Source: Candidatus Pacebacteria bacterium RIFOXYA1_FULL_38_18 (GTDB lineage: Bacteria; Patescibacteriota; Microgenomatia; UBA1400; PJMF01). Taken from it: 64,000 nt of DNA. The stretch is from assembly GCA_001787405.1 (NCBI GenBank), contig MFWV01000011.1:48857-112856 (forward strand), written 5' to 3'. This document shows positions 1 to 48,362 of the stretch, in pieces (position 1 is the stretch's first letter; each line of letters opens with the position of its first letter). Position numbers and translations under genes: made by a program. The notes below the pieces were generated by a model. That model saw nothing but the letters and a program-made list of their open reading frames with translations. It had not been told where the DNA came from and did not search any database.

Positions 1-201
1 AATCAGTCAGTCAATCAGATGGCTCAGGCTAATCAACCGACTCAACCAATTAATCAATCAGCTAATCAATCAGCCGATCAGCCAATTTCTCAAACTTCAG
101 CTCAATCAGCTAATATTGATAAAAAAGAAAAGGACGAACAATCACCTTCTTACTCTGGTCACTACGACATAAACGACTACTCACCGCCAACTTCCCCTTG
201 A
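1..201 (+). CDS. 3' end of a gene running off the window start; Q/S/N/P-rich low-complexity C-terminus
   Basis: Frame 1 is open from nt 1 to the TGA at 199-201. ORF-track entry 19..201 is its internal Met. The DNA is made of AATCAG/TCAGTC-type short repeats. Confidence 0.3.
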   Translation, partial: NQSVNQMAQANQPTQPINQSANQSADQPISQTSAQSANIDKKEKDEQSPSYSGHYDINDYSPPTSP

Positions 202-5690: not shown

Positions 5691-8642
5691 ATGTCTCGTT
5701 TAGAAACCTTACCGGCATCCCAAAATCAGCGCGTCCTCTTAATTGGAGCTCAGACGTGGTTATTTTCTTTAATCAAAGAGAGATTTATTGACTACGATAT
5801 CCAAGTGATTGAAGTAACTGAGATTGATTTTCTAAAAATTGATCACCAGAGTTTACATCTAGAAACCATTTATAAAATTATCTGGTGGGTTGACTTCACC
5901 GATTTGAGGACTCAGCAATTGGTGTCCAATAATCTCCAATCAATGAAGGATATTTCATTCATTATTTTGGGTAAATTACCAGAATTATTCCTATTGGAAA
6001 CAGAGAAATTACCTCAAGAGATTACTAAAGCTCAAGAATTTTTTGTCAATCTTGCCGGAAAATTTACTTCAGCTCAATTGTTTTTTGTCAGAGATTTGGT
6101 AAATGAGGAAGAATTATCAGTAATTTTTCAATTTGTTTTTCGAGGGTTTAAAAAAAACATTCTCCTAGATCCTCAGGCTCACTGGTTTTTCTGCACTCGG
6201 CGAGATTTTTTTAAAGCCATCGAGCCCTATCTAGTCAGACCCCATGCCGTGCAACGAGTCTTAATCCAGGGTAAAAAAATTATTAGTAGTGTGATTCTAA
6301 AAAAAATAGTGGATTTATTAGCGCGTTATTACAATCTTTCCTTCAAAGTAATTTCTGTTATCGCCGAACGCCACTCTCCCCCACTCTTGGGTTTTGCAGA
6401 AGCTACCATAACATCACAAACAACGAATTTTATTGATGACTTTATTCGTCAAAAAAAATCGTGGCAAAAAGTGGCTGAGGATCTCCCCTTTCCTTCTGAA
6501 AAACATCTCTATCAAGACCTTTTAGAATCAAACGAAGATCGGCCTTTAGACAATATTCAGTTAAATGAATCAATTGAACTGATGAAAGAGAATTATTCTG
6601 AGAGAAATTCAATAAATGGTAAAAAGCCAAAAGTTTCTATTTCCGAGTCTCAAAGTAATTTTGAGCAACAGGAGGTTGATAAAGAAAAAAGATTGATAAA
6701 TGGGGAAGAAATTACAAAAGAACCTGTGGAAGAAGAGAAGATAGAAAGGGAACTAGCTCGCATTTTTCATCAGCAAAGAGATGAAAAAAAGCAAAAAAGA
6801 ATTGGTTTTAAAATAAAAATAATCAAAAAAATAGCCCAAAAATCCAAAAAAAATAAAACACTTTTTTTTGGCGGAATGGTTGCCGTGTTTGTGGGGGGAG
6901 TAATTCTTTCTCTCTGGGGAATATTATTTCTTACCACTGTTTTTGCTCGCAAAGAAGTGATGGCTTTTTTCACGACAAATTCTTCTCAAACAAAGCAGGT
7001 ATATCAACCTGATTTCTGGACTCAAGCATTAATTTCTCAAACAAATTTTTATCAAAATTTTTTGGATAAATCCTGGCTTGGAGCTAGTGGCGAGTTGGCA
7101 GAATTTAGTCAAGATTTTACTCAACTCAGTCAACAGCAAATAGAAATTAAAAATTTGGGAGGGCAATATCTTTTAAGTTTATTGAGTGGAAAAGAGGCTT
7201 TATCAGATTTATCGTCCTTACTGAATGAAAAACTGACCGAGGTTCAAAAATCAACCAATAAGATAGTTAATTCCGCAGAACTGGTTTTACCAGGCATATT
7301 AGATTCAGAAAATGATTGGTTGACGGCTTTTCAGCAAACCACTCAAAATCAAGCCCTAGCACTTCAACTGCCAGACCTATTAAGCTCTATTTTTGGAGGA
7401 GAAGGAAAGCGTACCTACGCAGTATTATTACAAAACAATTTAGAATTAAGACCAACAGGTGGTTTTATTCAAGCAATTGGTTTTCTCACGTTTGATCAAG
7501 GATTGTTAATTGATAGCCAAATTGTTAATCCTTATGATCTTGATCAGCGAGTGTTGGCCTCGGTTTTGGCTCCAACAGAGATAAGAAAATATTTGGGAGA
7601 AAATAATTGGTATTTGCGTGATAGTAATTGGAATCCGGATTTTCCAGAAACTGCCTTAAGAGTATCTTGGTTTATTCGTCAAGCAATTGGCCTGCAGGTG
7701 GATGGGGTTTGGGCCATTAATTATCTTGCTCTACAAGATATGTTGGAAGCAATTGGCCCATTGGAATTAGCCAATTATAATGAGCTATTAACAGAGAAAA
7801 ATCTTTTGGAAAGAGTAGAGTTTCATTCAGATGATGAGCTAACCAATGTTAAAGAACAACAACAAGATTATGCCACCACTGTTTTTAATCAATTTTTATT
7901 GCAATTACAGACAATGTCACCAGAGCAAGCTACGGCGTTTTTGGATACTTTACAACTTGGTTTAACCAACAAACAAATTTTGGTTAGCCTATTTGACCAG
8001 GAACAGGCAGAGCTTACAGAGAAAATGGGTTGGAATGGTCAGATAATTAATCCAATTTGTCCCACTCGATTTTCACAAGTAACTTGTTTGGTTGATCAAA
8101 TTTTTCAAGTAGAAACAAACATTGGACTGAATAGGGTAGGGGCTTATATCAAAAGAGAAATAGAACATCGCGTAGATTTGAGTGACGAAAAAATTGCTCA
8201 TACTAGATCAATAATTTTTAAAAACACCAGTCGTTCCGATGGTTGGCCCCTGGGTTCTTACAAAACCTATCTTCGTTTTATTCTGGACGGGGAAGCTCAG
8301 CCCAGTTCCATAAGCATTGATGGTCGAAAAATCGTGGGCGATCAAGTGATGATCTATGGAGAAGGTGGTAGGCGAGTGGTGGGAGTGCCGGTAGAAGTAC
8401 CCAAGCAAGCAACGGTTACAGTGGAGTTTTATTACTTGACCGAGACAATACCTCAAGAATCATTCTCCTATTTATTATTTGATCAACAACAATCTGGAGT
8501 AGAGGAGACACCAACCAAGATTGTTATTTATAATTCCGATCAAAAACCAAGCCTAATAGCTCCTCGAGCTGAGTTATTTGGCAACTCGGTGGAATTTAAT
8601 CAAATCAAGAACGAGCATCTATTTGTGGGAGTACGCTATTAA
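5691..8642 (+). CDS. large single-pass membrane protein (about 390-aa cytoplasmic N-domain, TM, about 570-aa extracytoplasmic domain); function unknown
   Basis: 983 aa. One strong TM (FFGGMVAVFVGGVILSLWGILFLTTVF). Downstream RPTGGFIQAIGF motif. No recognisable catalytic signature. Confidence 0.55.
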   Translation: MSRLETLPASQNQRVLLIGAQTWLFSLIKERFIDYDIQVIEVTEIDFLKIDHQSLHLETIYKIIWWVDFTDLRTQQLVSNNLQSMKDISFIILGKLPELFLLETEKLPQEITKAQEFFVNLAGKFTSAQLFFVRDLVNEEELSVIFQFVFRGFKKNILLDPQAHWFFCTRRDFFKAIEPYLVRPHAVQRVLIQGKKIISSVILKKIVDLLARYYNLSFKVISVIAERHSPPLLGFAEATITSQTTNFIDDFIRQKKSWQKVAEDLPFPSEKHLYQDLLESNEDRPLDNIQLNESIELMKENYSERNSINGKKPKVSISESQSNFEQQEVDKEKRLINGEEITKEPVEEEKIERELARIFHQQRDEKKQKRIGFKIKIIKKIAQKSKKNKTLFFGGMVAVFVGGVILSLWGILFLTTVFARKEVMAFFTTNSSQTKQVYQPDFWTQALISQTNFYQNFLDKSWLGASGELAEFSQDFTQLSQQQIEIKNLGGQYLLSLLSGKEALSDLSSLLNEKLTEVQKSTNKIVNSAELVLPGILDSENDWLTAFQQTTQNQALALQLPDLLSSIFGGEGKRTYAVLLQNNLELRPTGGFIQAIGFLTFDQGLLIDSQIVNPYDLDQRVLASVLAPTEIRKYLGENNWYLRDSNWNPDFPETALRVSWFIRQAIGLQVDGVWAINYLALQDMLEAIGPLELANYNELLTEKNLLERVEFHSDDELTNVKEQQQDYATTVFNQFLLQLQTMSPEQATAFLDTLQLGLTNKQILVSLFDQEQAELTEKMGWNGQIINPICPTRFSQVTCLVDQIFQVETNIGLNRVGAYIKREIEHRVDLSDEKIAHTRSIIFKNTSRSDGWPLGSYKTYLRFILDGEAQPSSISIDGRKIVGDQVMIYGEGGRRVVGVPVEVPKQATVTVEFYYLTETIPQESFSYLLFDQQQSGVEETPTKIVIYNSDQKPSLIAPRAELFGNSVEFNQIKNEHLFVGVRY

Positions 8643-13947: not shown

Positions 13948-14388
13948 TTAAAGTGGCCACTGAGTCTCGGGCCCAGGGATTCTGAATTTTAAAATAGTTT
14001 TTACCCCTGTAAAATCACTGATTAGATTGAGAATAATAAAGGCAGACAGTGCTACCACTAGGCCGATTACTGCAGAAGTGATTGATTTTTGGGCTTTTTC
14101 TACGTTTTGACTATTTCCACCAGATAGCAAAATATTAAAGGCAGCCACAACGACCATGATAAAGGAAACTATTCCTACTAAAGTTAAAAAAGTAGCCAAG
14201 ACATTGGCCAATAAACATTGAAAACCTTGGATAGTGGCTACCGAGCTATCATTTTCACTCACACACACTCCACTCCAAGAACTGGTTTGGGCTAGAGCAG
14301 GGGAGGCGCTAGCTAAAAAACCAAGCAAGGCAGAGCCGATGACCGCTATTTTCCGATTAATATTTTTCATATAAGCGTAATTATACAT
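13948..14388 (-). CDS. small secreted two-TM protein, VirB2/TrbC-like (T4SS pilin-like), paralog 1 of 7
   Basis: The signal peptide is better from Met7 (MKNINRKIAVIGSALLGFLASASPALA). Two hydrophobic helices flank a GGNSQNVEKAQKSITSAVIGL loop motif. It shares the family motif with the next six genes. Confidence 0.6.
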   Translation of the reverse strand: MYNYAYMKNINRKIAVIGSALLGFLASASPALAQTSSWSGVCVSENDSSVATIQGFQCLLANVLATFLTLVGIVSFIMVVVAAFNILLSGGNSQNVEKAQKSITSAVIGLVVALSAFIILNLISDFTGVKTILKFRIPGPETQWPL

Positions 14389-14445
14389 ACAAAATCGAGA
14401 TAAAAAAATCTATTCAAAGCTGGACGGTTTGGTTTTTTTAAAAAA

Positions 14446-14480
14446 TAAAAAAAAGAAGCCCTCGCACGTTAGTGAGAAGG
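14446..14480 (-). terminator. rho-independent terminator downstream of pilin-like paralog 2
   Basis: On the minus strand AGAAGCC...GGCTTCT forms a 7-bp stem followed by CTTCTTTTTTTTATTTTTT. Confidence 0.5.
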
Positions 14481-14503
14481 CTTCTGAATTTCAATTAATT
14501 TAA

Positions 14504-14902
14504 TTAACCATTGATGGTTCTAGTTTCCAGCACTTCATTTAGGTCTTTGAAGCCCAAGAAGTTCAAGGCTAAAGTAAGAATGGCATAAGAAGCAGCCACT
14601 ACGATCAAGCCGATTATCGCTGAGGTAATTTTGTTTCTAGCACTTTCGGTTTTACCTTTATCACCTCCGCTAGTAATCCATTCAATACCTCCCCAAATGA
14701 GATAGAGAAAGACCATTAAGGCTGCTAACACCATAACAAAACTCAAAATACCATTTAACAACTTACCAAAATCAGTGGCGAAACCCTGACCTGGGGTAAC
14801 TTGAGTTTTGGCGATATCCACAGCTCCAGCTGGGACTACGGCAGCAACCAAGCTGGCAATGGACACACTGGTTGACAGAGTGAATTTTTGAAATTTATTC
14901 AT
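14504..14902 (-). CDS. VirB2/TrbC-like pilin-like protein, paralog 2 of 7
   Basis: Sec signal peptide (…AAVVPAGA|VD), TM1, loop WITSGGDKGKTESARNKITSAIIGLIVV, TM2. Confidence 0.65.
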   Translation of the reverse strand: MNKFQKFTLSTSVSIASLVAAVVPAGAVDIAKTQVTPGQGFATDFGKLLNGILSFVMVLAALMVFLYLIWGGIEWITSGGDKGKTESARNKITSAIIGLIVVAASYAILTLALNFLGFKDLNEVLETRTING

Positions 14903-15025
14903 GATTCTCCTTTTATTAATTTCTAAATTTTTTTACCCTAAAACAAGATTGCTGATCATTATACTCATATCTTGCCATAAACGTCAAAACATTATCAGTT
15001 CGCTTTTTCCAGTCAATCTCGAATT

Positions 15026-15367
15026 TTAACAAGTTCCTCCAAAATCAAGTATGCAGATATTTAAAAATTTTTGCAACAAAATAAAGAGTGCGGTGGTAGA
15101 AGCCAGTACGATTAAACCAATTAACGCTTGAGTAATTTTATTTCTAGAACTTTCTAGTTTGCTTTTATCACCCTCACTAGTGATCCATCCCAAGGCGCCT
15201 AGCAAAAGATAAATAAAAGCGACCAACACTGCCACCACCATGATTGCGCTCATTAGCGTACTCATAAAACCACCAAAACCACCTTTGACACTAGAACCAG
15301 GCAGATTGGCTTGATCAGCAGCACCGCTTAGATTGATGGTAGTCTGTTGGGCGATTAAATTATTCAT
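15026..15367 (-). CDS. VirB2/TrbC-like pilin-like protein, paralog 3 of 7 (no obvious signal peptide)
   Basis: WITSEGDKSKLESSRNKITQALIGLIVL lies between two TM helices. The N-terminus MNNLIAQQ resembles paralog 7. Confidence 0.6.
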   Translation of the reverse strand: MNNLIAQQTTINLSGAADQANLPGSSVKGGFGGFMSTLMSAIMVVAVLVAFIYLLLGALGWITSEGDKSKLESSRNKITQALIGLIVLASTTALFILLQKFLNICILDFGGTC

Positions 15368-15372
15368 GTTTT

Positions 15373-15792
15373 TTAATTCAAAGCACTAGGAATAGTTATT
15401 TTCAAAATATTAAAACTTTCACCAAAAAATAGGTCGCTAATGAAACTTAAAATGACGAAAGAACCAACTAAAATAATCAAACCAATAATTGCTTGCATGA
15501 TGCGATTTCTGGCTTTTTCCAGTTTACCCTTTTCACCCTCACTAGTAATCCACTCAAAAGCTCCCAAGATAAAGAATACCAAGACCGTGATTGCTCCAAT
15601 GCCAATAATGGCGCTCCAAAGAGTTACGAAATAATTGGCAAAAGTAACTCCGCTAGCTGCTCCTTCAGCGTCATTACCCAGCGCTCCCTCGACTACTGGA
15701 TTGGTTAATTGAGCAAAAGCGGGAGAAGCTGTTGCCAGTGTAAAAACACTCAGGGTTGATAGAGCGCTGCCGATTTTGATTATTTTTTTCAT
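15373..15792 (-). CDS. VirB2/TrbC-like pilin-like protein, paralog 4 of 7
   Basis: Signal peptide …ASPAFA|Q. Loop motif EWITSEGEKGKLEKARNRIMQAIIGLIIL between two TMs. Confidence 0.65.
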   Translation of the reverse strand: MKKIIKIGSALSTLSVFTLATASPAFAQLTNPVVEGALGNDAEGAASGVTFANYFVTLWSAIIGIGAITVLVFFILGAFEWITSEGEKGKLEKARNRIMQAIIGLIILVGSFVILSFISDLFFGESFNILKITIPSALN

Positions 15793-16208
15793 AATCCTCC
15801 TGAAACTGGGGCAATAATATTTTGAATTTGTTCGGCAGGATTCAAGAAATCAAAGCCCAATAGACTGCCCAACAACCCAATAATGCTGTATGAAGCGATG
15901 ATGATAATCATACCCAGTGCTCCATGTACCATTTGATTCCTAGCTTTTTCCAGTTTGCCCTTATCTCCCTCACTAGAAATCCATTGAAAGGCACCAATGA
16001 CAAACTGCACCACAAAAAACAACGCACCCAAAGCAGTTAAAAAGCCAATTATATTGGAAACAAAAAGTTCTAGATTGGTTAATGCTCCAGTACCAACATC
16101 TGATCCTTCACTATAAGCATCAGTGGGGGGAGTAAAACCACCTAGAGGAACATCTTCAGTAGCACCTTTACCTGCTTGAGTGATTAATGAAAAAAAACTA
16201 AATAGCAT
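15789..16208 (-). CDS. VirB2/TrbC-like pilin-like protein, paralog 5 of 7
   Basis: Loop motif QWISSEGDKGKLEKARNQMVHGALGMII between two TMs. Overlaps paralog 4 by 4 nt. Confidence 0.6.
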   Translation of the reverse strand: MLFSFFSLITQAGKGATEDVPLGGFTPPTDAYSEGSDVGTGALTNLELFVSNIIGFLTALGALFFVVQFVIGAFQWISSEGDKGKLEKARNQMVHGALGMIIIIASYSIIGLLGSLLGFDFLNPAEQIQNIIAPVSGGL

Positions 16209-16220
16209 AATTTGGACTCC

Positions 16221-16712
16221 TTACGAAACTCCTCGCAATGTAGGATTGATAATGTAAGTAGCATCACCAAAGAAAATCAGACCGATGATTGCAGCAATGG
16301 TATAGGCCCCCACAATCAAGCCAAGACCAACCAGACTATTAGTCATCATGGAGGAAGCTTGAGTAACACCCTTGCTGTCTCCAGAAGAAATAATGTATTG
16401 CCAGCCAGCCAAGATAAAATTGATCAGCACCCAAACTCCAGCAGCTACGGTGGCTAGACGAATGAGATTGGAAATAAAAGTAATAAGACCAATTCCGCCC
16501 TCACCTTCGGCGTTATAACGATCTACACCCGCTGGGGCTTCGATAGTACCAAAAATACTAGTTTCATCACTAGTTTTAGGATTAGTGGGAGTAATTTGAC
16601 CTACGGCAATTACTGAATTGGTAAAGCCACCCAGAAAAATTCCCAGGACAATTGTGAGAGAAAGAAAAAACTTGGTTAGTTGGTTGGTCAAACTAGATTT
16701 CATTTTCATCAT
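16221..16712 (-). CDS. VirB2/TrbC-like pilin-like protein, paralog 6 of 7 (longer N-region)
   Basis: Signal peptide, then a roughly 70-aa hydrophilic region, then TM1, loop QYIISSGDSKGVTQASSMMTNSLVGLGLIV and TM2. Confidence 0.55.
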   Translation of the reverse strand: MMKMKSSLTNQLTKFFLSLTIVLGIFLGGFTNSVIAVGQITPTNPKTSDETSIFGTIEAPAGVDRYNAEGEGGIGLITFISNLIRLATVAAGVWVLINFILAGWQYIISSGDSKGVTQASSMMTNSLVGLGLIVGAYTIAAIIGLIFFGDATYIINPTLRGVS

Positions 16713-16731
16713 GATTGTAGTATAGCTTTCT

Positions 16732-17067
16732 CTACAAAGGAATATCTGCTCCCGTGATTACTTTGATAATTTGTAAAATCCAATAGGCAGCAAACATGAT
16801 AACTAGACCAGCCACCATAGTGCTGGCGATTTTTTGGGCTTCTTGTAAACCTTTTTCTCCTTGAGCAATGAATTTATAACCGATCACAATAATAAGGACC
16901 ATGATCACTACGCCAGCAATAACGAAGAGATTTGGTACTATCAAATTGACTAAATCAGCAGGGGTGCTAAAGACTTCGCTAACAGGTTTCCCTCCTTGTA
17001 AAATATAGGATGATCCAAGATCTAAATCTCCTTCACCGGTGTTTTGAGCAATGAGTAGATCCAGCAT
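16732..17067 (-). CDS. VirB2/TrbC-like pilin-like protein, paralog 7 of 7 (divergent, no signal peptide)
   Basis: Two TMs flank KFIAQGEKGLQEAQKIASTMVAGLVIMF. First gene of the array, divergent from the sigma-factor gene. Confidence 0.5.
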   Translation of the reverse strand: MLDLLIAQNTGEGDLDLGSSYILQGGKPVSEVFSTPADLVNLIVPNLFVIAGVVIMVLIIVIGYKFIAQGEKGLQEAQKIASTMVAGLVIMFAAYWILQIIKVITGADIPL

Positions 17068-17110
17068 TGAATGGTATTATATCAGCAACCGGAGAAGAAA
17101 AAAACGTGTC

Positions 17111-17656
17111 ATGCACATCTTAATCAAAGACGAACAAAAACTAGTTGAACAATTGAGACAAGGCAAAAACCAAGCCGTAAAGACTTGGTTTAAATTATTT
17201 TCTCCTTATTTATTAGCCATTACCTTAAAAAAAGTTTCCAGCCACCAGGATGCAGAGGAATTAGTTCAAGAAACCTTCATCAATTGTTTGCGTCAACTAC
17301 CTCTGTTTGAGGGTCGGTCTAGATTAAAAACCTGGATGGTAAGTATTTTGCATCATGAAATTGCGGATTTTTATCGTAAAAAATATGCCAAAAAAACTCT
17401 GCAGACTATTCCACTAGTCAATCTTATTTTGACTCAACCGATCAAAGATGCGAGTGAAACTTCACAAAAAGTACGACAAGTACTATCAAATATGAGTCAG
17501 CGCAAGAGAGAATTACTATTGATGAAATATGTAGACAAAAAACAAGTCAAGGAAATCGCTCACTATTGGCAAAAAACAGCCAAATCAGTAGAAGCTGAAC
17601 TCTTTCGCGCCAGAGAGGAATTTCGATTGCTTTATGCTCAATTGGAAAGAGCTTAA
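17111..17656 (+). CDS. ECF-type RNA polymerase sigma-70 family factor
   Basis: Region 2 (ELVQETFINCLRQLPLFEGRSRLKTWMVSILHHEIADFYRKK) and region 4 (RKRELLLMKYVDKKQVKEIA) are present. The start is taken at Met21 to avoid a divergent overlap with the pilin array. The ORF track starts at 17051. Confidence 0.8.
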   Translation: MHILIKDEQKLVEQLRQGKNQAVKTWFKLFSPYLLAITLKKVSSHQDAEELVQETFINCLRQLPLFEGRSRLKTWMVSILHHEIADFYRKKYAKKTLQTIPLVNLILTQPIKDASETSQKVRQVLSNMSQRKRELLLMKYVDKKQVKEIAHYWQKTAKSVEAELFRAREEFRLLYAQLERA

Positions 17657-17894
17657 AAAATTTAGATTAAAAAAACCTAAACAGTTTAATTTGAAAGAAA
17701 CAAAAGATATGCAACAAGCTCAATTTTTACAAACCCTTGCCGAGGAGGCTCGTTTACAAGCTCAAATTAGCTCCACAAAAGTAGTGCCAAAAAGTTTGGA
17801 AAGAATGGCTAATTTAATCGGCAATCATACTTGGAAATTATTATTAGTAGTTTCTGGAATAATGTCCCTGCTCACAGAAATATGGCAGCGATGA
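17634..17894 (+). CDS. possible anti-sigma factor (small protein with C-terminal TM)
   Basis: 86 aa. Overlaps the sigma gene 3' end. C-terminal TM is TWKLLLVVSGIMSLLTEIW. The only support is position and topology. Confidence 0.3.
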   Translation: MLNWKELKKFRLKKPKQFNLKETKDMQQAQFLQTLAEEARLQAQISSTKVVPKSLERMANLIGNHTWKLLLVVSGIMSLLTEIWQR

Positions 17895-18247
17895 TACATC
17901 AACGATCTTTACACATTGCAACATCATTACTGTATTCCATTGGTCAGATTACCCAGGGTTTGTTTTTGCATCCCTATCAAACTATGCAGTTGTTGGTTCG
18001 TGAAAAAGTATTTTTTTGGCTGACTTTTTTACCTATGGGAGTGTGGGTGGTGGCTAGACTATTTTGGGGGTTAATCATCGTGCCTTTGGTGCGCTTGACT
18101 TTTTCCTGTAGCCAAACTGGCTTTATGGGTTGTGATTTGATTTCTTTTTTTAGTCGTTGGTTATTTTATTTTTGTATTTTATGGCAATTAATATTGTTAT
18201 ATTTGTTTGTCAGATTTAGTTATGCTTTTTTCAAAAAGAACTCATGA
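17882..18247 (+). CDS. hypothetical polytopic membrane protein
   Basis: Hydrophobic ORF between the anti-sigma candidate and recF. Start chosen at an internal Met; the ORF track starts at 17831. Confidence 0.35.
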   Translation: MAAMIHQRSLHIATSLLYSIGQITQGLFLHPYQTMQLLVREKVFFWLTFLPMGVWVVARLFWGLIIVPLVRLTFSCSQTGFMGCDLISFFSRWLFYFCILWQLILLYLFVRFSYAFFKKNS

Positions 18248-21699: not shown

Positions 21700-23493
21700 A
21701 TGACTTTTTTTACTTTTGCCCAGCATCTCAAAAAAATCGAGGCAGTTAGCGCTCGATTGGAAATTACTAGATTATTATCTCAATTATTTTCTGAGTTAAA
21801 AATCAAAGAAATTCCGCCGGCAATTTATTTATCACTTGGTCGATTGGTCCCGCAATATCAATCATTGGAATTTCAACTTTCAACCAAAATGATTCTTCGT
21901 GCATTAACCAAACATTTGGCTCACCACCCCGATATTTATGGAGCCAATGGATCAATGAGTAATTTGTTTAATGAAACAGATGAAAGTTTATATGAAGAGC
22001 GAGTAAATAAACTTTATAAACAAACTGGTGATATTGGTGAGACTACTGAACAGTTGTTAAGCTTGGGTGATAAAGAAGGCCTGAAGCCTGATTTACTAGA
22101 AGTTTATGAGCAATTGGTACAGATTGCCAAAGAGGGCGGAACCGGCTCTCAAGAGCGAAAAATAGCAGGACTAATTGATCTTTTTGAAAAACTAGATTCC
22201 AATTCTCTGCGTTTTATCGTGCGTATCATAGTGGGTAAATTGCGTTTGGGTTTTTCTACTATGACCGTGCTTGATGCTCTGTCATGGACTAAACACAATG
22301 ATAAGTCTGAGAGTGGCAAGCTTGAGGAATTATTTCAAAAAAAAGCTGACCTAGGATTATTAGCTCAAGTTTATTTGGATCCCCAACATAATTTAAAAGC
22401 AGTGCAAAAACTTTATCAAATTTCTGAGGGTATTCCAGTCATGCCGGCTTTATGTCAGCGACTCAATTCTGCCGAAGAAATTATTGCCAAAATGCCAAAA
22501 GTAATTGTTGAACCAAAATATGATGGTTTGCGCATTCAAATTCATTTGGGTAAAGACAAAAATAGTAAAAAATGGGTGCGTTCATTCACTCGTAATCTGG
22601 AAGAAACCTCTCAGATGTTTCCGGAATTAAATCAAGCTTTGACAAAACTGGATTGTGTTAGCTGTATTTTGGATGGGGAAGTGGTGGGAGTAGATAAAAA
22701 AACTGGCAAGATTGTTGCTTTTCAAGAAACATCTACGCGTCGTCGTAAACACGGCATAGCAGCAAAGGCTGAGGAATTGCCAGTGCGTTTTTATTTATTT
22801 GATGTATTAGAAAAAAATGGACAATCATTAATTGACACACCGCTTAGTGAGCGCAAAACAATCTTAAAACAAATCGTGAAAGCCGATACTGATGTTTTTA
22901 CCACTGCGCCTTTTATAGTCACTAGCGATCCCGAAGAATTACATGATTATCATACGAAACAATTGGCATTGGGATTGGAAGGAGCAGTAATCAAAAAACA
23001 TGACTCTGTTTATAAAAGTGGTCGCAAGGGCTGGCGTTGGGTGAAGATTAAAGAAGAAGAAGGCACTAGTGGCAAACTTAGTGACACACTGGACTGTATC
23101 GTGATGGGTTATTACGGTGGTCGGGGTAAGCGTGCGGCTTTTGGAGTGGGCGCTTTTTTAGTTGGTTTATTGGGTGATGATGGCAAAATTTATACACTGG
23201 CCAAGATTGGTACTGGACTCACTGATGAACAATTTAAAGAACTAAAAAAGCGCCTCAACAAACACGAGGTAAAGGTCAAACCCAAAGTTTATAAAGTACA
23301 TAAGAACCTAATTCCAGATGGCTGGATTGAACCATCTTTTGTGGTGGAAATTGCTGCTGATGAACTGACTCGTTCGCCAGTTCACTCGGCTGGTAAAGCC
23401 CTGCGCTTTCCTCGCTTAGTCAAGTTTAGAGACGACAAAACTTGGCAAGAAGCAACCACTCTCAAAGAAATGGAAACCATTAAAATTGGTTGA
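21700..23493 (+). CDS. lig: ATP-dependent DNA ligase (Lig I / archaeal-eukaryotic type)
   Basis: 597 aa. Motif I KYDGLRIQIH (adenylation lysine). N-terminal DNA-binding domain, then adenylation and OB domains. Confidence 0.85.
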   Translation: MTFFTFAQHLKKIEAVSARLEITRLLSQLFSELKIKEIPPAIYLSLGRLVPQYQSLEFQLSTKMILRALTKHLAHHPDIYGANGSMSNLFNETDESLYEERVNKLYKQTGDIGETTEQLLSLGDKEGLKPDLLEVYEQLVQIAKEGGTGSQERKIAGLIDLFEKLDSNSLRFIVRIIVGKLRLGFSTMTVLDALSWTKHNDKSESGKLEELFQKKADLGLLAQVYLDPQHNLKAVQKLYQISEGIPVMPALCQRLNSAEEIIAKMPKVIVEPKYDGLRIQIHLGKDKNSKKWVRSFTRNLEETSQMFPELNQALTKLDCVSCILDGEVVGVDKKTGKIVAFQETSTRRRKHGIAAKAEELPVRFYLFDVLEKNGQSLIDTPLSERKTILKQIVKADTDVFTTAPFIVTSDPEELHDYHTKQLALGLEGAVIKKHDSVYKSGRKGWRWVKIKEEEGTSGKLSDTLDCIVMGYYGGRGKRAAFGVGAFLVGLLGDDGKIYTLAKIGTGLTDEQFKELKKRLNKHEVKVKPKVYKVHKNLIPDGWIEPSFVVEIAADELTRSPVHSAGKALRFPRLVKFRDDKTWQEATTLKEMETIKIG

Positions 23494-29793: not shown

Positions 29794-32133
29794 TTGATGT
29801 TTATAGAATCTGATAGTTTTGTCACCAGTGTTTCTATGTTTTTCATCAATCTCTTTTTATGGATAGGAATTATTGGTTTAGTACTTATTTTGGCTTATTT
29901 ATTTTTACAATGGTTTAAACATCGCAAACGCGAAGTCTATTCTCTGGACTTTGTAACACTACTAGTTCGTCTTCCCAAAGACAATGAAGTAAAGATTGAT
30001 GCTGCCGAACAAATGTTTGCCGGACTTTATTCTCTCAAAAATGATGGAATTTTCTCTTTCTTAAAACCAGAAGAAATCATTAGTTTTGAGATAGTGGGCC
30101 TCAAAGAAGAAATTGCTTTTTATGTTAGTTGTCCCAGAAAAATTAGAGATTTAGTAGAAAAACAAATTCATGGAGCATATCCCTTTGCTGATATCAAAGA
30201 AACTGATGAGGTAAATATTTTTAGCGAAAAAGGGCGAGTAGCTTTTTCTTCATTGAAACTTAAAGAAGGTCACTCTTTACCTTTAAAGACTTACAAAGAT
30301 TTACCAACAGACGGCTTGTCATTGATTACTTCTGCTTTTTCCAAAATGGGAGAAGGAGATGGTGCGATCTTGCAAATCTTGATCAGACCGGAAGGCAATC
30401 GTTGGCAGAAAAAAGGCAGAAACTACATCAAAAACGAAAAAAAACGAGAAGCTGATCCTCAAAAAGCAACTTATGGCCATGATCCAAAAGAAATGGAAGC
30501 AGTAACAACCAAAGTTGAAAAACCAGGCTTCAGAACCTCAATCAGAGTAGTGGTATCTTCAGCTCATGAATCAATAGCCCACTCACATTTAAATAACATT
30601 GACGGTGCTTTTTCTCAATTTGCTTCTACCTATAACCAACTCACTCATTCTCGTTTTTACATCAAACATCTTTTTATGATTGATTTTATTTATCGTTATA
30701 TGCCGTTATTTAATATAGGTACTTCAATTTTGAATACCGAAGAGTTAGCCACTGTTTTTCACTTTCCCAATAAAACTGTGGAGACTCATCACATCAAGTG
30801 GCTACAAGCCAAAAACGCACCAGCCCCGCATCAAATTCCCAATGAGGGACTCTTTTTGGGCAAATCTCTTTATCGTGGAGAAATACGAGATGTGCACATG
30901 AAGCTGAAAGATCGTCAACGCCACATGTACATCATTGGAAAAACTGGTACCGGTAAATCTGAGTTTTTGAAAGAAATGATCATGCAGGACATTATTAAAG
31001 GAGAAGGAGTTTGTGCCATTGATCCGCATGGTGAGTTTGTAGAAGATATTTTGCAATTAATGCCACCAGAACGGGCAGAAGATGTCATCTATTTCAACCC
31101 ATCAGATCTAGATCGGCCGATGGGTTTGAATATGATGGAAGCAGATTTTGAGGAACAAAAGCATTTTGTGGTGAGTTCCATTATTGGTTTAATGTACAAA
31201 TTATATGATCCGCATCGCACTGGTATCATCGGTCCGCGATTTGAGCATGCCATCAGAAACGCTATGTTGACAATCATGTCTAGAGAAGGTTCTACTTTTA
31301 TTGAGCTAGTTCGGGCCCTAACAGATCAAAAATTTGTTGAAGAGCTCTTGCCTTATGTTAAAGATCCGGTAGTAAAACGATATTGGACTGATCAGATTGC
31401 TCAAACCAGTGATTTCCATAAGTCAGAAGTGCTTGACTACATTGTGTCCAAATTTGGCCGTTTTGTGACCAATAAAACGATGAGAAACATCATTGGCCAG
31501 CCCAAGAGCTCTTTTAATTTCCGCAAAGCAATGGACGAGAAAAAAATTATTTTATGCAACCTTTCCAAAGGCATCTTGGGTGAGGAAGATGCCAAGTTTC
31601 TTGGTTTGATTCTAGTGCCAAAAGTCCTAACTGCTGCTATGAGCAGACAAGATGTGCCGATGGATCAGCGAACTGATTTTTTTCTCTATGTGGACGAGTT
31701 TCAAAACTATGCTACCGAGGATTTTGCCACCATTCTTTCAGAGGCTAGAAAATACAAACTCAATTTGATTGTAGCCAATCAGTTTATTGGTCAGATTGAT
31801 GAGGAAGTCAAAAACGCGGTGTTTGGTAATGTTGGCACCATTATTTCTTTCCGCATTGGCGTAACAGATGCCAATTTCCTACAACATGAATTTACTCCAG
31901 TTTTTAACGAAACAGACTTGGTTAATGTAGAAAAGTATCACGTTTACATTAAAACCATTGTCAACAATGAGCCAGTATCAGCTTTCAGCATGTCATTGGA
32001 AAAAGACATGGACGCCATCAAAGCCCAAATGAATCCCAAGTTGGCAGAAATGATCAAACAGCTTTCCCGCTTAAAATATGGTAAAGAGAGATCCGTAGTT
32101 GAGGCAGAAATTTCCATTAGAGCAAGATTATAA
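29794..32133 (+). CDS. membrane-anchored P-loop ATPase of the FtsK/HerA/VirB4/VirD4 (TraG-like) superfamily
   Basis: 779 aa. N-terminal TM helices. Walker A IIGKTGTGKSEF. DPHGE motif. Walker B FFLYVDEFQNY. ARKYKLNLIVANQ arginine-finger/Q region. Confidence 0.6.
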   Translation: MMFIESDSFVTSVSMFFINLFLWIGIIGLVLILAYLFLQWFKHRKREVYSLDFVTLLVRLPKDNEVKIDAAEQMFAGLYSLKNDGIFSFLKPEEIISFEIVGLKEEIAFYVSCPRKIRDLVEKQIHGAYPFADIKETDEVNIFSEKGRVAFSSLKLKEGHSLPLKTYKDLPTDGLSLITSAFSKMGEGDGAILQILIRPEGNRWQKKGRNYIKNEKKREADPQKATYGHDPKEMEAVTTKVEKPGFRTSIRVVVSSAHESIAHSHLNNIDGAFSQFASTYNQLTHSRFYIKHLFMIDFIYRYMPLFNIGTSILNTEELATVFHFPNKTVETHHIKWLQAKNAPAPHQIPNEGLFLGKSLYRGEIRDVHMKLKDRQRHMYIIGKTGTGKSEFLKEMIMQDIIKGEGVCAIDPHGEFVEDILQLMPPERAEDVIYFNPSDLDRPMGLNMMEADFEEQKHFVVSSIIGLMYKLYDPHRTGIIGPRFEHAIRNAMLTIMSREGSTFIELVRALTDQKFVEELLPYVKDPVVKRYWTDQIAQTSDFHKSEVLDYIVSKFGRFVTNKTMRNIIGQPKSSFNFRKAMDEKKIILCNLSKGILGEEDAKFLGLILVPKVLTAAMSRQDVPMDQRTDFFLYVDEFQNYATEDFATILSEARKYKLNLIVANQFIGQIDEEVKNAVFGNVGTIISFRIGVTDANFLQHEFTPVFNETDLVNVEKYHVYIKTIVNNEPVSAFSMSLEKDMDAIKAQMNPKLAEMIKQLSRLKYGKERSVVEAEISIRARL

Positions 32134-38620: not shown

Positions 38621-38649
38621 GAGCAGCTATTCTATCAAATTATTGCAAG

Positions 38650-38723
38650 TGCGTGCGCTAGGACTCGAACCTAGAACCACCAAGGTATAAGCTTGGTGCT
38701 CTGACCAATTGAGCTACGCACGC
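38650..38723 (-). tRNA. tRNA-Ile, anticodon UAU (reads AUA)
   Basis: Hand-folded cloverleaf. Acceptor GCGTGCG/CGCACGC. D-stem GCTC/GAGC. Anticodon stem CCAAG/CTTGG with loop CTTATAC. T-stem CTAGG/CCTAG with loop TTCGAGT. No encoded CCA. Confidence 0.75.
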
Positions 38724-41644: not shown

Positions 41645-42757
41645 TTATGAACTAGAGAGGTGTAAAGAAGAAGTTATGGTTTGATATTTATTTCTGATAT
41701 TTATGAATATTGCTGCGAAAAAAAATGCCATAATCCGCGGTCTTATGAGGCGAACCAAAGAAGAATCATTTTTAATAATTAATTTGAGAATATTTAGTCT
41801 GATAAGAATTTTTTTAATTTTTGGTTCATATTTTTTAAGATGCCAAAACTTCAAAGGAGGAAACTCAGCGAACCACTCGATTGGCAATAAATGAGCCAAT
41901 ATGAGAATTTTCCAAGATGTATTTTTACTAATAAAACTTGGAGTTGAGTATCTAAAGAAACAATTGCTCAAAATTATCATCAACCAGGCCTCATTTTGAA
42001 ACTGATATTGTTTTGCTAATTGTAAAAAATTAGACCATTGACTTGGTTTTTTATAGGTTTGAGTTAATTTTCCGATTTCATAAAGCGTGCCCAGACCCGT
42101 TGCTAAATCATTGAATAAAAAACGAATGCACAAAGACAGTAATTGATAGTTTTTATTTTGAATGTGGTGATTGTGTTTTGTGTTGTTCAATAGTGCTGTG
42201 GAAAATTTCCGCACAATTAGGATCTCTTGCGCATTGAGAGTGCCAAAATGTGGATGTGCAATCATGCTATGAATATCAAGATTTAAATAACGAGCCTTAG
42301 AATAAGTAATTTCTTTGGGCGGATAAATGGTTTTTTTATAACCCTGATTGGTTAACCATTGATCAATAATCATCATGCCCTGCTTGTTGGTAAGCAAATC
42401 AAGATCATTAGTAAGAAATAATTGCTGATTTAGTTTGTTTTTAAAATCCTTAAAAAAAATACCTTTTATTTTTGTTTTCTCCAAAAAAGAAATTAGACGT
42501 TGTTTTTCTTTTTCATATAACAAGCTGGAAAAAATGCTATTTTTTTGATGTTTGATTAGTTTGTTTTTAAAAGATTTATTCAAATGTTTTTGACAATTTT
42601 GACAGTTTGTAAAGTGATCTAAGGCATGGAAAACTTTATTAAACATTGCTTTTTCATAGAGTTTGCTAGTGCTTTTTTTAACTAAATTGATTGGAGGACA
42701 AACAGAGGAATTGTTTTGCAATAAAAAAACCAAGATTTCTATATCGGCATTTAACAT
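41645..42757 (-). CDS. uncharacterised nucleotidyltransferase (pol-beta superfamily, NTP_transf_5-like)
   Basis: 370 aa. hhxDhDhh metal-binding motif TNDLDLLTN. Size and composition fit the PF14907-type family often found in peptide-modification clusters. No HMM was run. Confidence 0.45.
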   Translation of the reverse strand: MLNADIEILVFLLQNNSSVCPPINLVKKSTSKLYEKAMFNKVFHALDHFTNCQNCQKHLNKSFKNKLIKHQKNSIFSSLLYEKEKQRLISFLEKTKIKGIFFKDFKNKLNQQLFLTNDLDLLTNKQGMMIIDQWLTNQGYKKTIYPPKEITYSKARYLNLDIHSMIAHPHFGTLNAQEILIVRKFSTALLNNTKHNHHIQNKNYQLLSLCIRFLFNDLATGLGTLYEIGKLTQTYKKPSQWSNFLQLAKQYQFQNEAWLMIILSNCFFRYSTPSFISKNTSWKILILAHLLPIEWFAEFPPLKFWHLKKYEPKIKKILIRLNILKLIIKNDSSLVRLIRPRIMAFFFAAIFINIRNKYQTITSSLHLSSS

Positions 42758-42760
42758 AGA

Positions 42761-43702
42761 GTGATTATAATCGTTGTTATGATATCTGTTTTGATTGCTA
42801 CTAAAGAACGGCCAGATTCATTACTTGTGTGTCTTCAATCAATTGTCTCCAATCAATTCACTCAGTACGAAGTGATTGTTATTGATCAGAGCAATGTTGT
42901 CAGTGCGCTAATCAAACAATATCTTAAAAAGCATCATCGCATACATTTTTATCATCTGCCAAATAGGGGTAGGGAGAGGGGCAAAAGTTATGCCCTACAA
43001 CAAGGATTGATGAAAGCAAAAGGAGAAATCATTGCTTTTACAGACGATGACTGCATAGTGGATAAAAAATGGTTAAAGATTCTTTGGCAAGGTTTTGCCC
43101 AAAACAAATGTGATGGTCTATTTGGTCAGGTTTTACCATATCAGCCAGCTCAACATGCTGATGAAACTTGCCCCTGTACAATGCGTTTTGCAAAAAAAGA
43201 ATTTGTTCGTCAACCGCGCTACCATGTTTCCATTGGTTACGGCAATAACATGGCTTTTAGAAAGCAAGCTCTTGATGAGATTGGTTCACCAAAAACCTGG
43301 CTCGGTCCCGGATCAATTGGTTCGAATGCGGAAGATGCGGAGCTTACCCTACGGGCATTATTTGCCAAAAAAATTATTTTGAGATATCCAAAATCTATTG
43401 TTTATCACAATCGTTGGTTGAATGCTCAAGAAATGAAAGAACAGCAACTCTCTTACACTCAAGGAGAAGCGGCTTGTTATGGCTATTTTTCCTTTCTTGG
43501 ATCAAATTTTTGCAAACAAATATTAATTAGAGGAATCAAAGCCAATCTTCAGAATTTAAAACGCAATCTATTGTCAGTTTTTAGTTTTAACAAAGGTAAG
43601 CGGACGCGAAACAACGTTTATTGGAATTTTCGATCATTACTAGCTAGTGCACGAGGATTGAGTGTAGGATTTTGGTTTTTTTTAACAGAGTCTTTAAAAT
43701 AG
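42761..43702 (+). CDS. soluble glycosyltransferase family 2
   Basis: VLIATKERPDSLLVCLQSI, VIDQSN and AFTDDDC are GT-A motifs. No TM. Confidence 0.7.
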   Translation: MIIIVVMISVLIATKERPDSLLVCLQSIVSNQFTQYEVIVIDQSNVVSALIKQYLKKHHRIHFYHLPNRGRERGKSYALQQGLMKAKGEIIAFTDDDCIVDKKWLKILWQGFAQNKCDGLFGQVLPYQPAQHADETCPCTMRFAKKEFVRQPRYHVSIGYGNNMAFRKQALDEIGSPKTWLGPGSIGSNAEDAELTLRALFAKKIILRYPKSIVYHNRWLNAQEMKEQQLSYTQGEAACYGYFSFLGSNFCKQILIRGIKANLQNLKRNLLSVFSFNKGKRTRNNVYWNFRSLLASARGLSVGFWFFLTESLK

Positions 43703-43703
43703 T

Positions 43704-44699
43704 TTGATTAAAATTATGTCAATATCAGCTTCAATTATTATTCCAACCAAAGAGAGATTTGAAACTCTCCAGCATTGTTTATTGGCTACAATTAAACAAT
43801 TATCCAAAGAGGACGAAGTAATGGTGGTAGAAAATGGTCAAGCTTATCAAAAAACTAAACACTTAATTAATATTTTAGCCAAAAATCACCAAATAAGTTA
43901 TGTTCATGAATCACGACTTGGACCAGCTTTTGCTCGCAATAAAGGAATTAGTTTGGCTCGCAATGAAATCTTGATTTTTTTGGATGATGATTGTGTGCCT
44001 GGTCCGGGCTGGTTGAAAGCAATTAAAAAGCGTCATGAAAATGAAAAAAAACACCAGCAAACAGTGGTTTTTCAGGGAAAAATTAATTATGTTTATAAAA
44101 AATCGAATGCATTTGTTGAGTTATTTCATTTAAGAAATCGGATGGATTGGCAAGTAATTCGGAAAACTCCGGGATGGAAAATGGGGAAATTCATAAATTT
44201 TTTAAATGCTGGAATTTTTTCTGTTCGAAGGTCGGTTTTAGTTAAAAATAAGATTAAATTTAATGAACTTTTTTTTCCTTTTGTTGGTGAAGAGAGAGAT
44301 CTGACAGCGCAATTACATTTGCATGGTATTTCCATTGTTTATGCATCGGAAATACAAGTAACACATTACAAAGATAGAGGAAGCGTAGTGAATTCATTAA
44401 AAAGATCTTTTCAGGCGGGATTGGCACAAGAAATACTGAACGTTTTATATAAAACCAATCAATCAACAAAATCTTTGTTTAAGAAATCTTTTCGAAAAGA
44501 AAAAAATGGAATAATCGCTGAATTGTTAAAACAATTTAATCAGCAGTCACTATTTACCATTACAGGTATGATCATTACTTATTTGCGATTGAGTATGTTG
44601 GTCCTGGGAAGAGTTTATGGCAAATTTTGGTGTCTGTTGCAAAAAAACAAGCTTTATGAACATAGAAAAAAGCTATTTTTATCAATCACTAAGAACTAA
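43704..44699 (+). CDS. soluble glycosyltransferase family 2
   Basis: SIIIPTKERFETLQHCL and IFLDDDCVPGPGWL match the GT-A fold. No TM. One nt after the previous GT2 stop. Confidence 0.7.
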   Translation: MIKIMSISASIIIPTKERFETLQHCLLATIKQLSKEDEVMVVENGQAYQKTKHLINILAKNHQISYVHESRLGPAFARNKGISLARNEILIFLDDDCVPGPGWLKAIKKRHENEKKHQQTVVFQGKINYVYKKSNAFVELFHLRNRMDWQVIRKTPGWKMGKFINFLNAGIFSVRRSVLVKNKIKFNELFFPFVGEERDLTAQLHLHGISIVYASEIQVTHYKDRGSVVNSLKRSFQAGLAQEILNVLYKTNQSTKSLFKKSFRKEKNGIIAELLKQFNQQSLFTITGMIITYLRLSMLVLGRVYGKFWCLLQKNKLYEHRKKLFLSITKN

Positions 44700-45168
44700 T
44701 AAGCTTGCGATATAGATGTTTTAAAAAAGGATATTTATAAAGATTTTTTATTTTTAATAAATTTGGAAAATGGTGATTCAGTCGTGAATACCAAGTCAGA
44801 ATAAAAACAAAAAACCGCGAGCGATTATTTTCCAAAAAGATAGTATGCGAAGGATATATGATTTTTATAGCTTTTCCCATGAGTTTTTTAATATCAACCT
44901 GGTTATCATAATCTAATTTATTATCGCCCTTGGTAATAACATATTTTTTTTTAATAGCCATTAAGCGATGAAGAATTATTTGATTGTTTTTTTTAAAAGC
45001 TACAATATCGCCAACCGTATATTCTTGAGAATAATTAAGTTTTAAAACAACTTTTGCACCATGTTTAATTAAGGGTTCCATGCTATAACCCTTGCTAGTG
45101 GTTTGTATAATAAGCGAATGTTTATTAGTAATGAATTGAGTAATTAATGAAACATTTTTCATTGTCAT
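44689..45168 (-). CDS. S26-family signal-peptidase-like serine protease (Ser/His SipW/ER-type), no obvious TM
   Basis: GYSMEP (nucleophile Ser). ILHRL (His replaces the Lys of the KR box). KGDNKLDYDNQ (GDNxxxSxDSR-like). Start ambiguous; the ORF track gives 45234. Confidence 0.5.
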   Translation of the reverse strand: MTMKNVSLITQFITNKHSLIIQTTSKGYSMEPLIKHGAKVVLKLNYSQEYTVGDIVAFKKNNQIILHRLMAIKKKYVITKGDNKLDYDNQVDIKKLMGKAIKIIYPSHTIFLENNRSRFFVFILTWYSRLNHHFPNLLKIKNLYKYPFLKHLYRKLISS

Positions 45169-45185
45169 TGTGCATTGCTGATTTG

Positions 45186-46334: not shown

Positions 46335-46369
46335 TTTTTGATTTTTTATAAAACTAATTAAGGTTGAAC

Positions 46370-46915
46370 AATTATTTTCAAAAACTACCGAACAACGTCG
46401 ATTGTTGGGAGTTTGGGCACATCCAGATGACGAATCACTCAATATAGAAGAAATTTTGGCTCTAGCAAACAAAGCTAAAATAAATACGCAAATAATTTGT
46501 CTTATGGAGAAATGGGCTTATCTCAAAATAGTGCCTTAGGGACTCGAGGGCGAGATGGGAAATCTGGCAAGAAAGCGATCGGTCGTGGAAGCTTTATTTT
46601 AGCGTTCTGGAACAGGACATAAAACGTCTTTATAAACATTCCAGAAAACTAACGATTTGGAAAAATATGCTAAAAGCAGATTTTCAAATAAGTATTACCA
46701 AAACAACTGATCAAAAAATAACGGCCTGTTTAGCTCACGTCAGCCAGTTGTCAGTTCTCAACAAACCAATCCCATTAAAAATAATTTTTAAAATGTTTGA
46801 TAATGAGTATTTACATCTAGTAACTGCACAAAACAAATATAATTTTCAATTTGTGAATTTTTTCACTCAAAGGTATAATTATCGTGTCAAAAACAAAACC
46901 GAAGGCTTTTCATAA
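46370..46915 (+). pseudogene. decayed LmbE/PIG-L-family deacetylase gene (no start codon, frameshift)
   Basis: Hand translation of 46378.. gives EQRRLLGVWAHPDDESLNIEEILALANKAKINTQIICLMEKW, with the PIG-L AHPDDE motif, ending in a stop. The reading frame of ORF 46667..46915 continues it after a frame change. Confidence 0.4.
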
Positions 46916-46931
46916 TAAAAAGGAATATTTT

Positions 46932-47216
46932 ATGGCTAAAAAATTTGACGATAATACTATGATAAAAAGAATGCAGGGCATTGTTTATAAAGAAGTTGAA
47001 GGGGTGTTTTATATTTTGAACTATCAAACAGTAACATTGCACACACTCAATGAAACAGCTAGCTTTGTCTGGAAAGAATTGGCCAAACCCAAAACTATTA
47101 AACAATTAACTGAAACGATCGTTGATAATTTTTCAACAACGAAAACTCAAGCAAAACAAGATCTTGAAAAATTCATTATCAAGTATAAAAAACTTGGCTT
47201 TCTTGAACTGATATAG
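46932..47216 (+). CDS. PqqD-family protein (RiPP recognition element-type peptide chaperone)
   Basis: 94 aa from MAKKFDDN with RBS AAGGAA 8 nt upstream. LNETASFVWKEL, LTETIVDNF and AKQDLEKFIIKYKKLGFLEL match the PqqD/RRE consensus. Confidence 0.65.
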   Translation: MAKKFDDNTMIKRMQGIVYKEVEGVFYILNYQTVTLHTLNETASFVWKELAKPKTIKQLTETIVDNFSTTKTQAKQDLEKFIIKYKKLGFLELI

Positions 47217-47242
47217 TTATCAAATAAAAATTAAAAAATTAT

Positions 47243-47341: not shown

Positions 47342-47393
47342 AAAATCTCCTATTTTTATTTGGTATTTTATTACTTGATAAAGTATTTCATTT

Positions 47394-48317: not shown

Positions 48318-48362
48318 TGTAATGATCGTATAAAATTGACTAAAATCTGCTTTGACAAATTA

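Follow-up and report, generated by a model that had tools for sequence, protein, structure and literature searches.

A conserved seven-gene array of VirB2-like pilin paralogs near the replication origin of a Microgenomatia bacterium, probably belonging to its chromosomal type IV secretion system

We analyzed a 64,000-nucleotide stretch of the genome of Candidatus Pacebacteria bacterium RIFOXYA1_FULL_38_18 (contig MFWV01000011.1; the whole stretch is referred to below as the window, numbered from its first letter) and focused on seven small open reading frames (ORFs) arranged in tandem on the minus strand, from position 13948 to 17067. They are numbered P1 to P7 from the lowest coordinate upward, and are therefore transcribed in the order P7 to P1. 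In the explanation that fits best, they probably encode VirB2-like pilins of a chromosomal, origin-proximal type IV secretion system (T4SS), in which we propose that each serves as a fixed subunit. Arrays of this kind are already known. In a search of 3,035 Patescibacteria genomes with PF18895, PF04956 and the CONJScan pilin profiles, Quinonero-Coronel et al. (2025) found 441 arrays, each with 2-11 VirB2-like pilins; they came from 383 assemblies of this group, were abundant in Microgenomatia and had a mean internal identity of ~25% (PMC12102498). The array described here is an instance of that published phenomenon, in the lineage where it was described. A first-pass annotation of the window had called seven tandem pilin genes unusual, which is true for canonical T4SS loci but not for Patescibacteria. 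What this locus adds is the positional orthology of the copies, a separate expression unit for P2, and a co-inherited sigma-factor module.

The seven paralogs and their family assignment

The proteins P1 to P7 are 146, 132, 113, 139, 139, 163 and 111 amino acids (aa) long, respectively. In an all-versus-all phmmer comparison of the window ORFs, 18 of the 21 pairs among them were linked at E values of ~5e-4 or better. P7 was not linked directly to P3, P4 or P5, and was joined to the group through P1, P2 and P6 at 1e-5 to 1e-7. No further ORF in the window was matched when the seven were used as queries. The seven ORFs are true paralogs, with similarity far beyond chance, and the initial call of seven related genes on one strand is borne out. 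Their pairwise identity is 16-42%. A loop motif, W-I-[TS]-S-[EG]-G-[DE]-K-[GS]-K-x-E-x-[AS]-R-N, had been ascribed to all of them; it is invariant in P2 to P5 but degenerate in P1, P6 and P7.

All seven proteins matched the hidden Markov model (HMM) PF18895 (T4SS_pilin), four of them above its gathering score of 26.6 bits: P2 scored best, at 40.8 bits, followed by P1 (33.1) and by P4 and P5 (27.2 each). P3 (24.4), P6 (19.2) and P7 (17.3) fell below the gathering score, and we counted them as family members because paralogy ties them in. P2 also matched the NCBIfam model NF045849 (Mbov_0395, a pilin-like conjugal transfer protein from integrative and conjugative elements of Mycoplasma) with 32.2 bits, below the cut-off of 40. 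A search with P2 returned 856 homologs at E <= 0.001 in a collection of 5.8 billion proteins. The best 120 of these 856 all carry PF18895, some of them also have a precomputed PF04956 match, and one is named "pilin" by NCBI. Both PF18895 and the genomic context thus support membership in the VirB2-like T4SS pilin family.

Hydropathy profiles revealed two long hydrophobic segments in each of the seven proteins. The AlphaFold2 model of P2, for which 42 sequences were used, is a helical hairpin (residues 41-77 and 82-115) with a four-residue loop (78-81) and a predicted local distance difference test score (pLDDT) above 90, which bears out the expected topology for the paralog that was modeled. 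Two-transmembrane (two-TM) hairpins are common, and a fold search was nonspecific. Among PDB sequences, a profile search gave no relevant match.

Signal peptides, which we called by heuristic sequence analysis, were of the classical type (a charged n-region and an AxA site) in P1, P2, P4 and P6, in P1 only when translation begins at Met7. The earlier statement that most of the proteins carry a Sec signal peptide therefore holds for four of the seven, which makes "most" generous. P3, P5 and P7 have no classical signal peptide and begin instead with short leaders of the type M..L(I/L)AQ (15347-15367, 16188-16208 and 17047-17067). These read MNNLIAQ in P3 and MLDLLIAQ in P7, and the n-region of P5 has no Lys or Arg. 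In other lineages, the P7 orthologs retain a complete signal peptide that ends in A-x-A/Q or A-x-A/C (the slash marks the cleavage site); the short leaders therefore look like signal-peptide remnants. Some P1 orthologs (e.g., in L027 and L035) are truncated likewise, to MQI.KQAYAQT.

P1 (13948..14388, minus strand) has its probable start at Met7 (14370), from which the signal peptide reads MKNINRK...ALA/Q, and the mature N-terminal region contains two conserved Cys. P2 lies at 14504..14902 (minus). P3 (15026..15367, minus), which is paralogous to P2 at E = 7e-23, is separated by 5 nucleotides (nt) from P4 (15373..15792, minus; cleavage at AFA/Q), and P4 in turn overlaps P5 (15789..16208, minus) by 4 nt. 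P6 (16221..16712, minus) combines its signal peptide with a divergent loop and is paralogous to P4 and P5 at ~1e-10. P7 (16732..17067, minus) is the first gene of the P7-P3 operon and P3 the last.

Positional conservation and expression signals of the array

We compared the array with 80 related loci that had been collected with the P2-P5 region as the query, and counted the small pilin genes of each locus with an HMM built from the paralogs. The titles of these loci name Pacebacteria, Paceibacterota, Woesebacteria, Microgenomates and "Patescibacteria group" metagenome-assembled genomes. Nearly every complete locus contained 6-13 small pilin genes, with a mode of 7. By best-hit assignment, the order P7-P6-P5-P4-P3-P2-P1 was retained one-for-one in the 80 related loci, and the only additions were an occasional extra P6 or P2. 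Orthologs were 40-93% identical, compared with the 16-42% between paralogs; in the closest locus (L001), P2 was 93% identical.

Against L001, the ratio of nonsynonymous to synonymous substitution rates (dN/dS) was 0.06-0.14 for six pilin genes and 0.07-0.19 for flanking housekeeping genes; these ratios are rough, as dS between the two loci is near saturation (0.8-1.6) and was not computable for P3. At 0.046, the dN of P2 was lower than that of every other gene in the comparison. Purifying selection on six of the seven pilin genes is as strong as that on their housekeeping neighbors. Taken together, positional orthology and dN/dS indicate that the paralogs are ancient, individually conserved and not interchangeable, which argues against a role in surface or host-range variation.

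Record titles look unreliable for contigs that clearly resemble the candidate phyla radiation and share the array and its synteny. The titles in question are, for many of them, "uncultured Pseudomonadales" (L003, L004, L009 and others), "Vitreimonas sp." (one) and "candidate division TM6 ... complete genome" (CP011212.1, in which the locus has 34% GC), the last two types being represented by L010 and L048.

Some of the related loci also encode proteins of 280-500 aa in which a large Cys-rich or extracellular N-terminal domain precedes a C-terminal PF18895 hairpin (L012:2399-3592, L021:3518-4705, L069:1145-2647 and L069:303-1148). They are candidate adhesins or tip pilins. No such fusion gene is present in the window.

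The expression signals of P2 set it apart. A sigma-70-type promoter, TTGACG-18-TATAAT, lies upstream at 14958..14987 (minus) and agrees with the consensus at 11 of 12 positions, and TTGAC and TATAAT-like boxes recur upstream of most P2 orthologs. The P2 Shine-Dalgarno sequence, AAGGAG, is the only canonical one in the array and is present in 80 of 81 P2 orthologs. Downstream, an intrinsic terminator at 14446..14480 (minus; GAAGCCTTCTC...GCGAGGGCTTC, then a run of eight T) forms a 9-bp stem that includes one G-U pair, with a stability of ~-19 kcal/mol, and in 73 of 81 loci the P2 ortholog is likewise followed by an equivalent hairpin with a T-run. The first-pass annotation had proposed an internal terminator and separate expression of individual paralogs; for one paralog, both are thus present as sequence signals, and are conserved. 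These signals suggest that P2 is effectively a monocistronic unit. We saw no terminator in the sequence between P3 and the P2 promoter, and read-through into P2 is therefore likely.

The genes from P7 to P3 are packed or overlapping and are therefore taken to be co-transcribed, and 60-120 nt precede each of P2 and P1. The P7 and P1 starts have no Shine-Dalgarno site. An extended -10 box of P7, TGATATAAT (17076..17084, minus), read from the sequence, ends 8 nt before the P7 ATG. Among 74 P7 orthologs, a Shine-Dalgarno sequence is found in one and a -10-like box 5-12 nt before the start in 54. This arrangement implies that the P7-P3 mRNA, starting from the -10 box 8 nt upstream of the P7 ATG, would be leaderless or nearly so. 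In P1, a TATAAT box (14385-14380) contains the first ATG of the ORF and precedes the ATG at 14370 by nine nt, a layout common to most P1 orthologs, and the P1 mRNA likewise looks leaderless. In AT-rich DNA, the loose -10 pattern that we used has a background of 4-6% for P3 and P4 and of 22-45% for P5 and P6. The leaderless assignment is firm only for P7 and P1, because in these the -10 box is also visible in the aligned sequences.

The T4SS core and the sigma-factor module

The window opens with the 3' end of a VirB4-like ATPase gene (1..201, plus strand), whose reading frame stops at position 201, followed by dnaA, dnaN, rnpA, yidC and jag, and the array lies ~12-15 kb from the replication origin. 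These 201 nt are the last 67 VirB4 codons; the C-terminal tail is of low complexity and rich in N, Q, S and P. We read the 10 kb upstream of dnaA (L081) from contig MFWY01000010.1 of assembly GCA_001787375.1, with DnaA as an exact-sequence match. In order, this region encodes a 1212-aa M23 peptidase, a 321-aa protein with no family match, a 389-aa PrgI (VirB3-like) protein (34 bits, above 27), a 355-aa TraC-like protein of the TrsD type, and a 705-aa VirB4 (P-loop_TraG, 82.9 bits; AAA_10, 47.9; CagE_TrbE_VirB, 22.7). The first-pass annotation had suggested searching the rest of the genome for VirB4 homologs; a VirB4-containing T4SS core lies immediately upstream of dnaA. No VirB6 homolog was recognized in this core cluster, and VirB6 homologs are scarce in Microgenomatia (PMC12102498). 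VirB5, VirB7, VirB9 and VirB10 were not seen either.

At 29794..32133 (plus), the window encodes a 779-aa homolog of VirD4/TraD-like type IV coupling proteins (T4CPs), with Pfam matches to TrwB_AAD_bind (32.1 bits), TraG-D_C (20.5) and DUF87 (38.6); its best matches, to VirD4/TraD-type coupling proteins, are all below the family cut-offs, and the best NCBIfam ones, SXT_TraD and the CD1115 VirD4-like model, far below. An ATPase of the VirB4/VirD4 superfamily had been noted 12 kb from the array. The superfamily is correct, but the protein is VirD4/T4CP-like and not VirB4, which lies at the left edge of the window. Beyond this ATPase, Pfam found no T4SS genes inside the window, and no relaxase was seen there. 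In published Patescibacteria genomes, virB4 is located near dnaA and dnaN, and T4CP homologs are mostly encoded far from virB4 (PMC12102498).

Three genes run divergently from P7. The first (17051..17656, plus; probable ATG at 17111) encodes an extracytoplasmic function (ECF)-type sigma factor that has regions 2 and 4 only, with matches to PF04542 (Sigma70_r2; 51.4 bits), PF08281 (r4_2; 33.1) and TIGR02937 (73.3, against a cut-off of 42.9), in agreement with its initial identification. The second (17634..17894, plus), directly 3' of the sigma gene and overlapping its stop codon, encodes a small single-pass membrane protein of ~61 aa, counted from the probable start at Met26 (17709), with a conserved amphipathic N-terminal (cytoplasmic) helix and a C-terminal TM segment. 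It matched no Pfam, NCBIfam or PHROG family, and no anti-sigma family among them; it is a candidate minimal anti-sigma factor. The product of the third gene (17831..18247, plus) spans the membrane several times and contains a nearly invariant GLxLHPYQTMQ motif as well as conserved Cys residues; it matched nothing in Pfam, NCBIfam or PHROGs, and its gene always stands third after the sigma and 61-aa genes (e.g., L001:5811-6227).

Homologs of the three proteins are found in 60, 58 and 60 of 80 loci, respectively. In 60 of 80 loci the sigma gene and the P7 ortholog are arranged head-to-head, mostly with tens of bases between them, and this adjacency is kept where the outer flank is IDI instead of RecF. 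Among the loci with at least 1.5 kb of sequence upstream of the array, ~59 of 69 contain the module. Loci without it have, in that position, the larger fusions of a Cys-rich extracellular domain with a PF18895 hairpin. The link between sigma factor and array is real at the level of gene order.

The mode of any control is a different matter. The conserved elements upstream of P7, P2 and P1 are of the TATAAT (sigma-70) type, and we found no conserved ECF-type promoter motif (AAC ... CGT) upstream of the sigma gene or the array genes, although no formal motif discovery was run. One candidate ECF promoter before the sigma ATG, GCAAC-N15-CGTGTC, was rejected: the CGT is lost in L001, and the element lies too near the ATG. 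Direct control of the array promoters by the sigma factor is not supported, because the array promoters that can be recognized are of the housekeeping type. The idea of envelope-signal control by the ECF sigma factor thus retains a conserved adjacency, but not the promoters that it would call for. Regulation of the array by the ECF sigma factor is a hypothesis, and the module may couple envelope or host-contact signals to it. The TATAAT box of P7 overlaps a TATTAT on the sigma strand in the near-palindromic ATATAATA (17068-17084), and judging from this overlap the divergent P7 and sigma promoters may compete. In the literature that we searched, we found no ECF sigma factor linked to Patescibacterial pilin arrays; the word "sigma" has 0 occurrences in PMC12102498.

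The window has further features. The sole tRNA gene in the 64 kb is a tRNA-Ile with the anticodon TAT (UAU) at 38649-38723 (minus), an uncommon bacterial way to read AUA. A region from ~42000 to 62000, with a GC content of 28-34% against 36% for the window, is densely packed with glycosyltransferase genes (GT2 and GT4) and also encodes a PMT_2-family protein, a YdjC fusion and a Wzy_C protein that resembles O-antigen ligases; it is likely a surface-glycan island. The window also encodes a 983-aa DUF4012 protein between rnhA and rplY (5691-8642) and an ATP-dependent DNA ligase of the archaeal/eukaryotic type (21700-23493).

Proposed function, rival explanations and known systems

We propose that the seven proteins build one structure, in which none can take the place of another. 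They would first be inserted into the membrane, P1, P2, P4 and P6 through Sec and signal peptidase and P3, P5 and P7 probably by YidC or as signal anchors. The VirB4/PrgI/TrsD machine would then extract the hairpins into a T4SS pilus-like filament or an envelope-spanning conduit. In this structure P2, probably the major subunit to judge from its promoter, Shine-Dalgarno sequence and terminator, would be abundant and make up the bulk, and P1 and P3 to P7 would be low-abundance minor, priming or tip subunits in fixed positions. By analogy with Southlakia epibionticum and other Saccharibacteria, the structure may serve a host-attached lifestyle and not conjugation. Wang et al. (2023) described a pilin series within the T4SS cluster of S. 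epibionticum ML1 (SEML1_0006-0019) that is essential (PMC10633639). A 2025 review repeats the essentiality of these pilins and speculates on a pilus-like conduit (PMC12857230). In the single species examined, epibiotic growth requires the Patescibacterial T4SS and its pilin series (PMC11665869).

Several points weigh against this proposal. The VirB2/TrbC-like identity put forward in the first-pass annotation holds for PF18895 but not for PF04956 (TrbC/VirB2), to which all matches (P2, 17.9 bits; P7, 16.6; P1, 14.9) are below the cut-off of 27.9. The T4SS core sits across dnaA from the array, ~13-23 kb away, and the array is not contiguous with virB4. A filament has not been seen for any Patescibacterial T4SS (PMC12857230), and the word "pilus" rests on homology. 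The export route of P3, P5 and P7, which have no signal peptide, is uncertain. The division into a major and minor subunits was made because of expression signals, not measured abundance, and the dN/dS ratios carry the imprecision given above.

The main rival holds that the hairpins never leave the membrane and are integral translocon components of a monoderm T4SS or scaffolds around it, comparable to the pilin-like proteins encoded by integrative and conjugative elements of Mycoplasma, which is wall-less. Gram-positive T4SSs are generally without pili (PMC10633639), and P2 has a sub-threshold resemblance to one of those Mycoplasma proteins, Mbov_0395. The missing signal peptides of three paralogs and the scarcity of VirB6, a homolog of which was not recognized in the core here either, would also fit channel parts. 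Seven conserved, distinct subunits, one of which has high-expression signals, better fit a polymer of one major and several minor components, however, and the fusions of Cys-rich extracellular domains to the same hairpin in relatives suggest display on an extracellular structure. We therefore consider a purely membrane-embedded role unlikely.

A second rival, under which the paralogs are interchangeable alternative major subunits whose differential expression or exchange varies the surface or the host range, appears to us very unlikely. It was raised for Patescibacterial arrays in PMC12102498, has been proposed for the VirB2 paralogs of Bartonella and Anaplasma, and was suggested in the first-pass annotation as alternative subunits or surface variation. 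The low identity among the paralogs, the separate promoters of P1 and P2, and the extra P2 or P6 copies of some lineages are all compatible with it. Against it, each position of the array can be matched to an ortholog of its own in the 80 loci, at identities as low as ~40%. The duplications are therefore older than the radiation, and no copy has been lost. Selection on the pilin genes (dN/dS of 0.06-0.14) is no more relaxed than that on their housekeeping neighbors, and P7 to P3 are packed or overlapping and therefore taken to be co-transcribed. The data can be explained without repeats or recombination signals, for which no search was made.

The last rival, that these are unrelated small membrane proteins (holins, bacteriocin immunity proteins or ECF-regulon stress proteins) that resemble pilins in topology, can point to the commonness of two-TM hairpins, the nonspecific fold search and the adjoining ECF sigma factor, but it is effectively refuted by HMM and context evidence: the PF18895 matches are specific and exceed the threshold, Pfam at E <= 1 and PHROGs gave no match to a holin or immunity family (the sole PHROG match was a generic "membrane protein," E = 0.003), the genome encodes a matching T4SS core, and the promoters are sigma-70-type, not ECF-type.

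Within the reading of the array as T4SS pilins, a more detailed combination is a tentative possibility: P2 would be the major subunit, the leaderless P7-P3 transcript would supply a stoichiometric minor set, P1 would be a special subunit with a disulfide, and the ECF trio would be a sensor-regulator for host contact or envelope status in Microgenomatia. We did not find this subunit logic or the regulatory module in the literature that we searched. A keyword search of PMC12102498 and PMC10633639 likewise turned up no mention of positional orthology, of purifying selection, of a P2 unit set against a leaderless P7-P3 transcript, or of the ECF module. The locus leaves the general picture of Patescibacterial T4SS function unchanged, while its comparative details sharpen testable hypotheses. 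They present the copies as a conserved seven-part set and not as a variation device, and indicate which paralog to tag and image (P2) and which regulator to test (the sigma module).

Among known systems, type IV pilus sets offer a functional analogy, in that one highly expressed major subunit is accompanied by an operon of conserved, non-interchangeable minor subunits; fold and machinery are unrelated, and the likeness is one of analogy, not homology. The canonical VirB2/TrbC/TraA pilins (PF04956) are, like P1 to P7, small proteins in which a short charged loop connects two hydrophobic helices, in genomes that encode VirB4; a signal peptide, by our heuristic calls, is common to them and to four of the seven. 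Unlike those of diderm T4SSs, the pilins here are present in seven copies and not one, belong to a monoderm host, and in three cases have no signal peptide. The Trw (TrwL) array of Bartonella and the VirB2 array of Anaplasma resemble the present one as tandem multiplications of VirB2-like genes in the T4SS of a host-dependent bacterium. Those arrays are lineage-specific and thought to serve variation, whereas the array here is ancient, positionally orthologous and under purifying selection. Finally, the pilin genes of S. epibionticum are part of the T4SS cluster itself, whereas those described here are ~13 kb away from it, across dnaA. The array agrees with those described for Patescibacteria (PMC12102498 and PMC10633639) in the following points: PF18895 proteins encoded in tandem, divergent copies (7 here and 2-11 in the published set; 16-42% identity and a mean of 25%, respectively), chromosomal and near the origin, with an MPF-FATA-like core of VirB4, PrgI and TrsD and with the T4CP encoded elsewhere.

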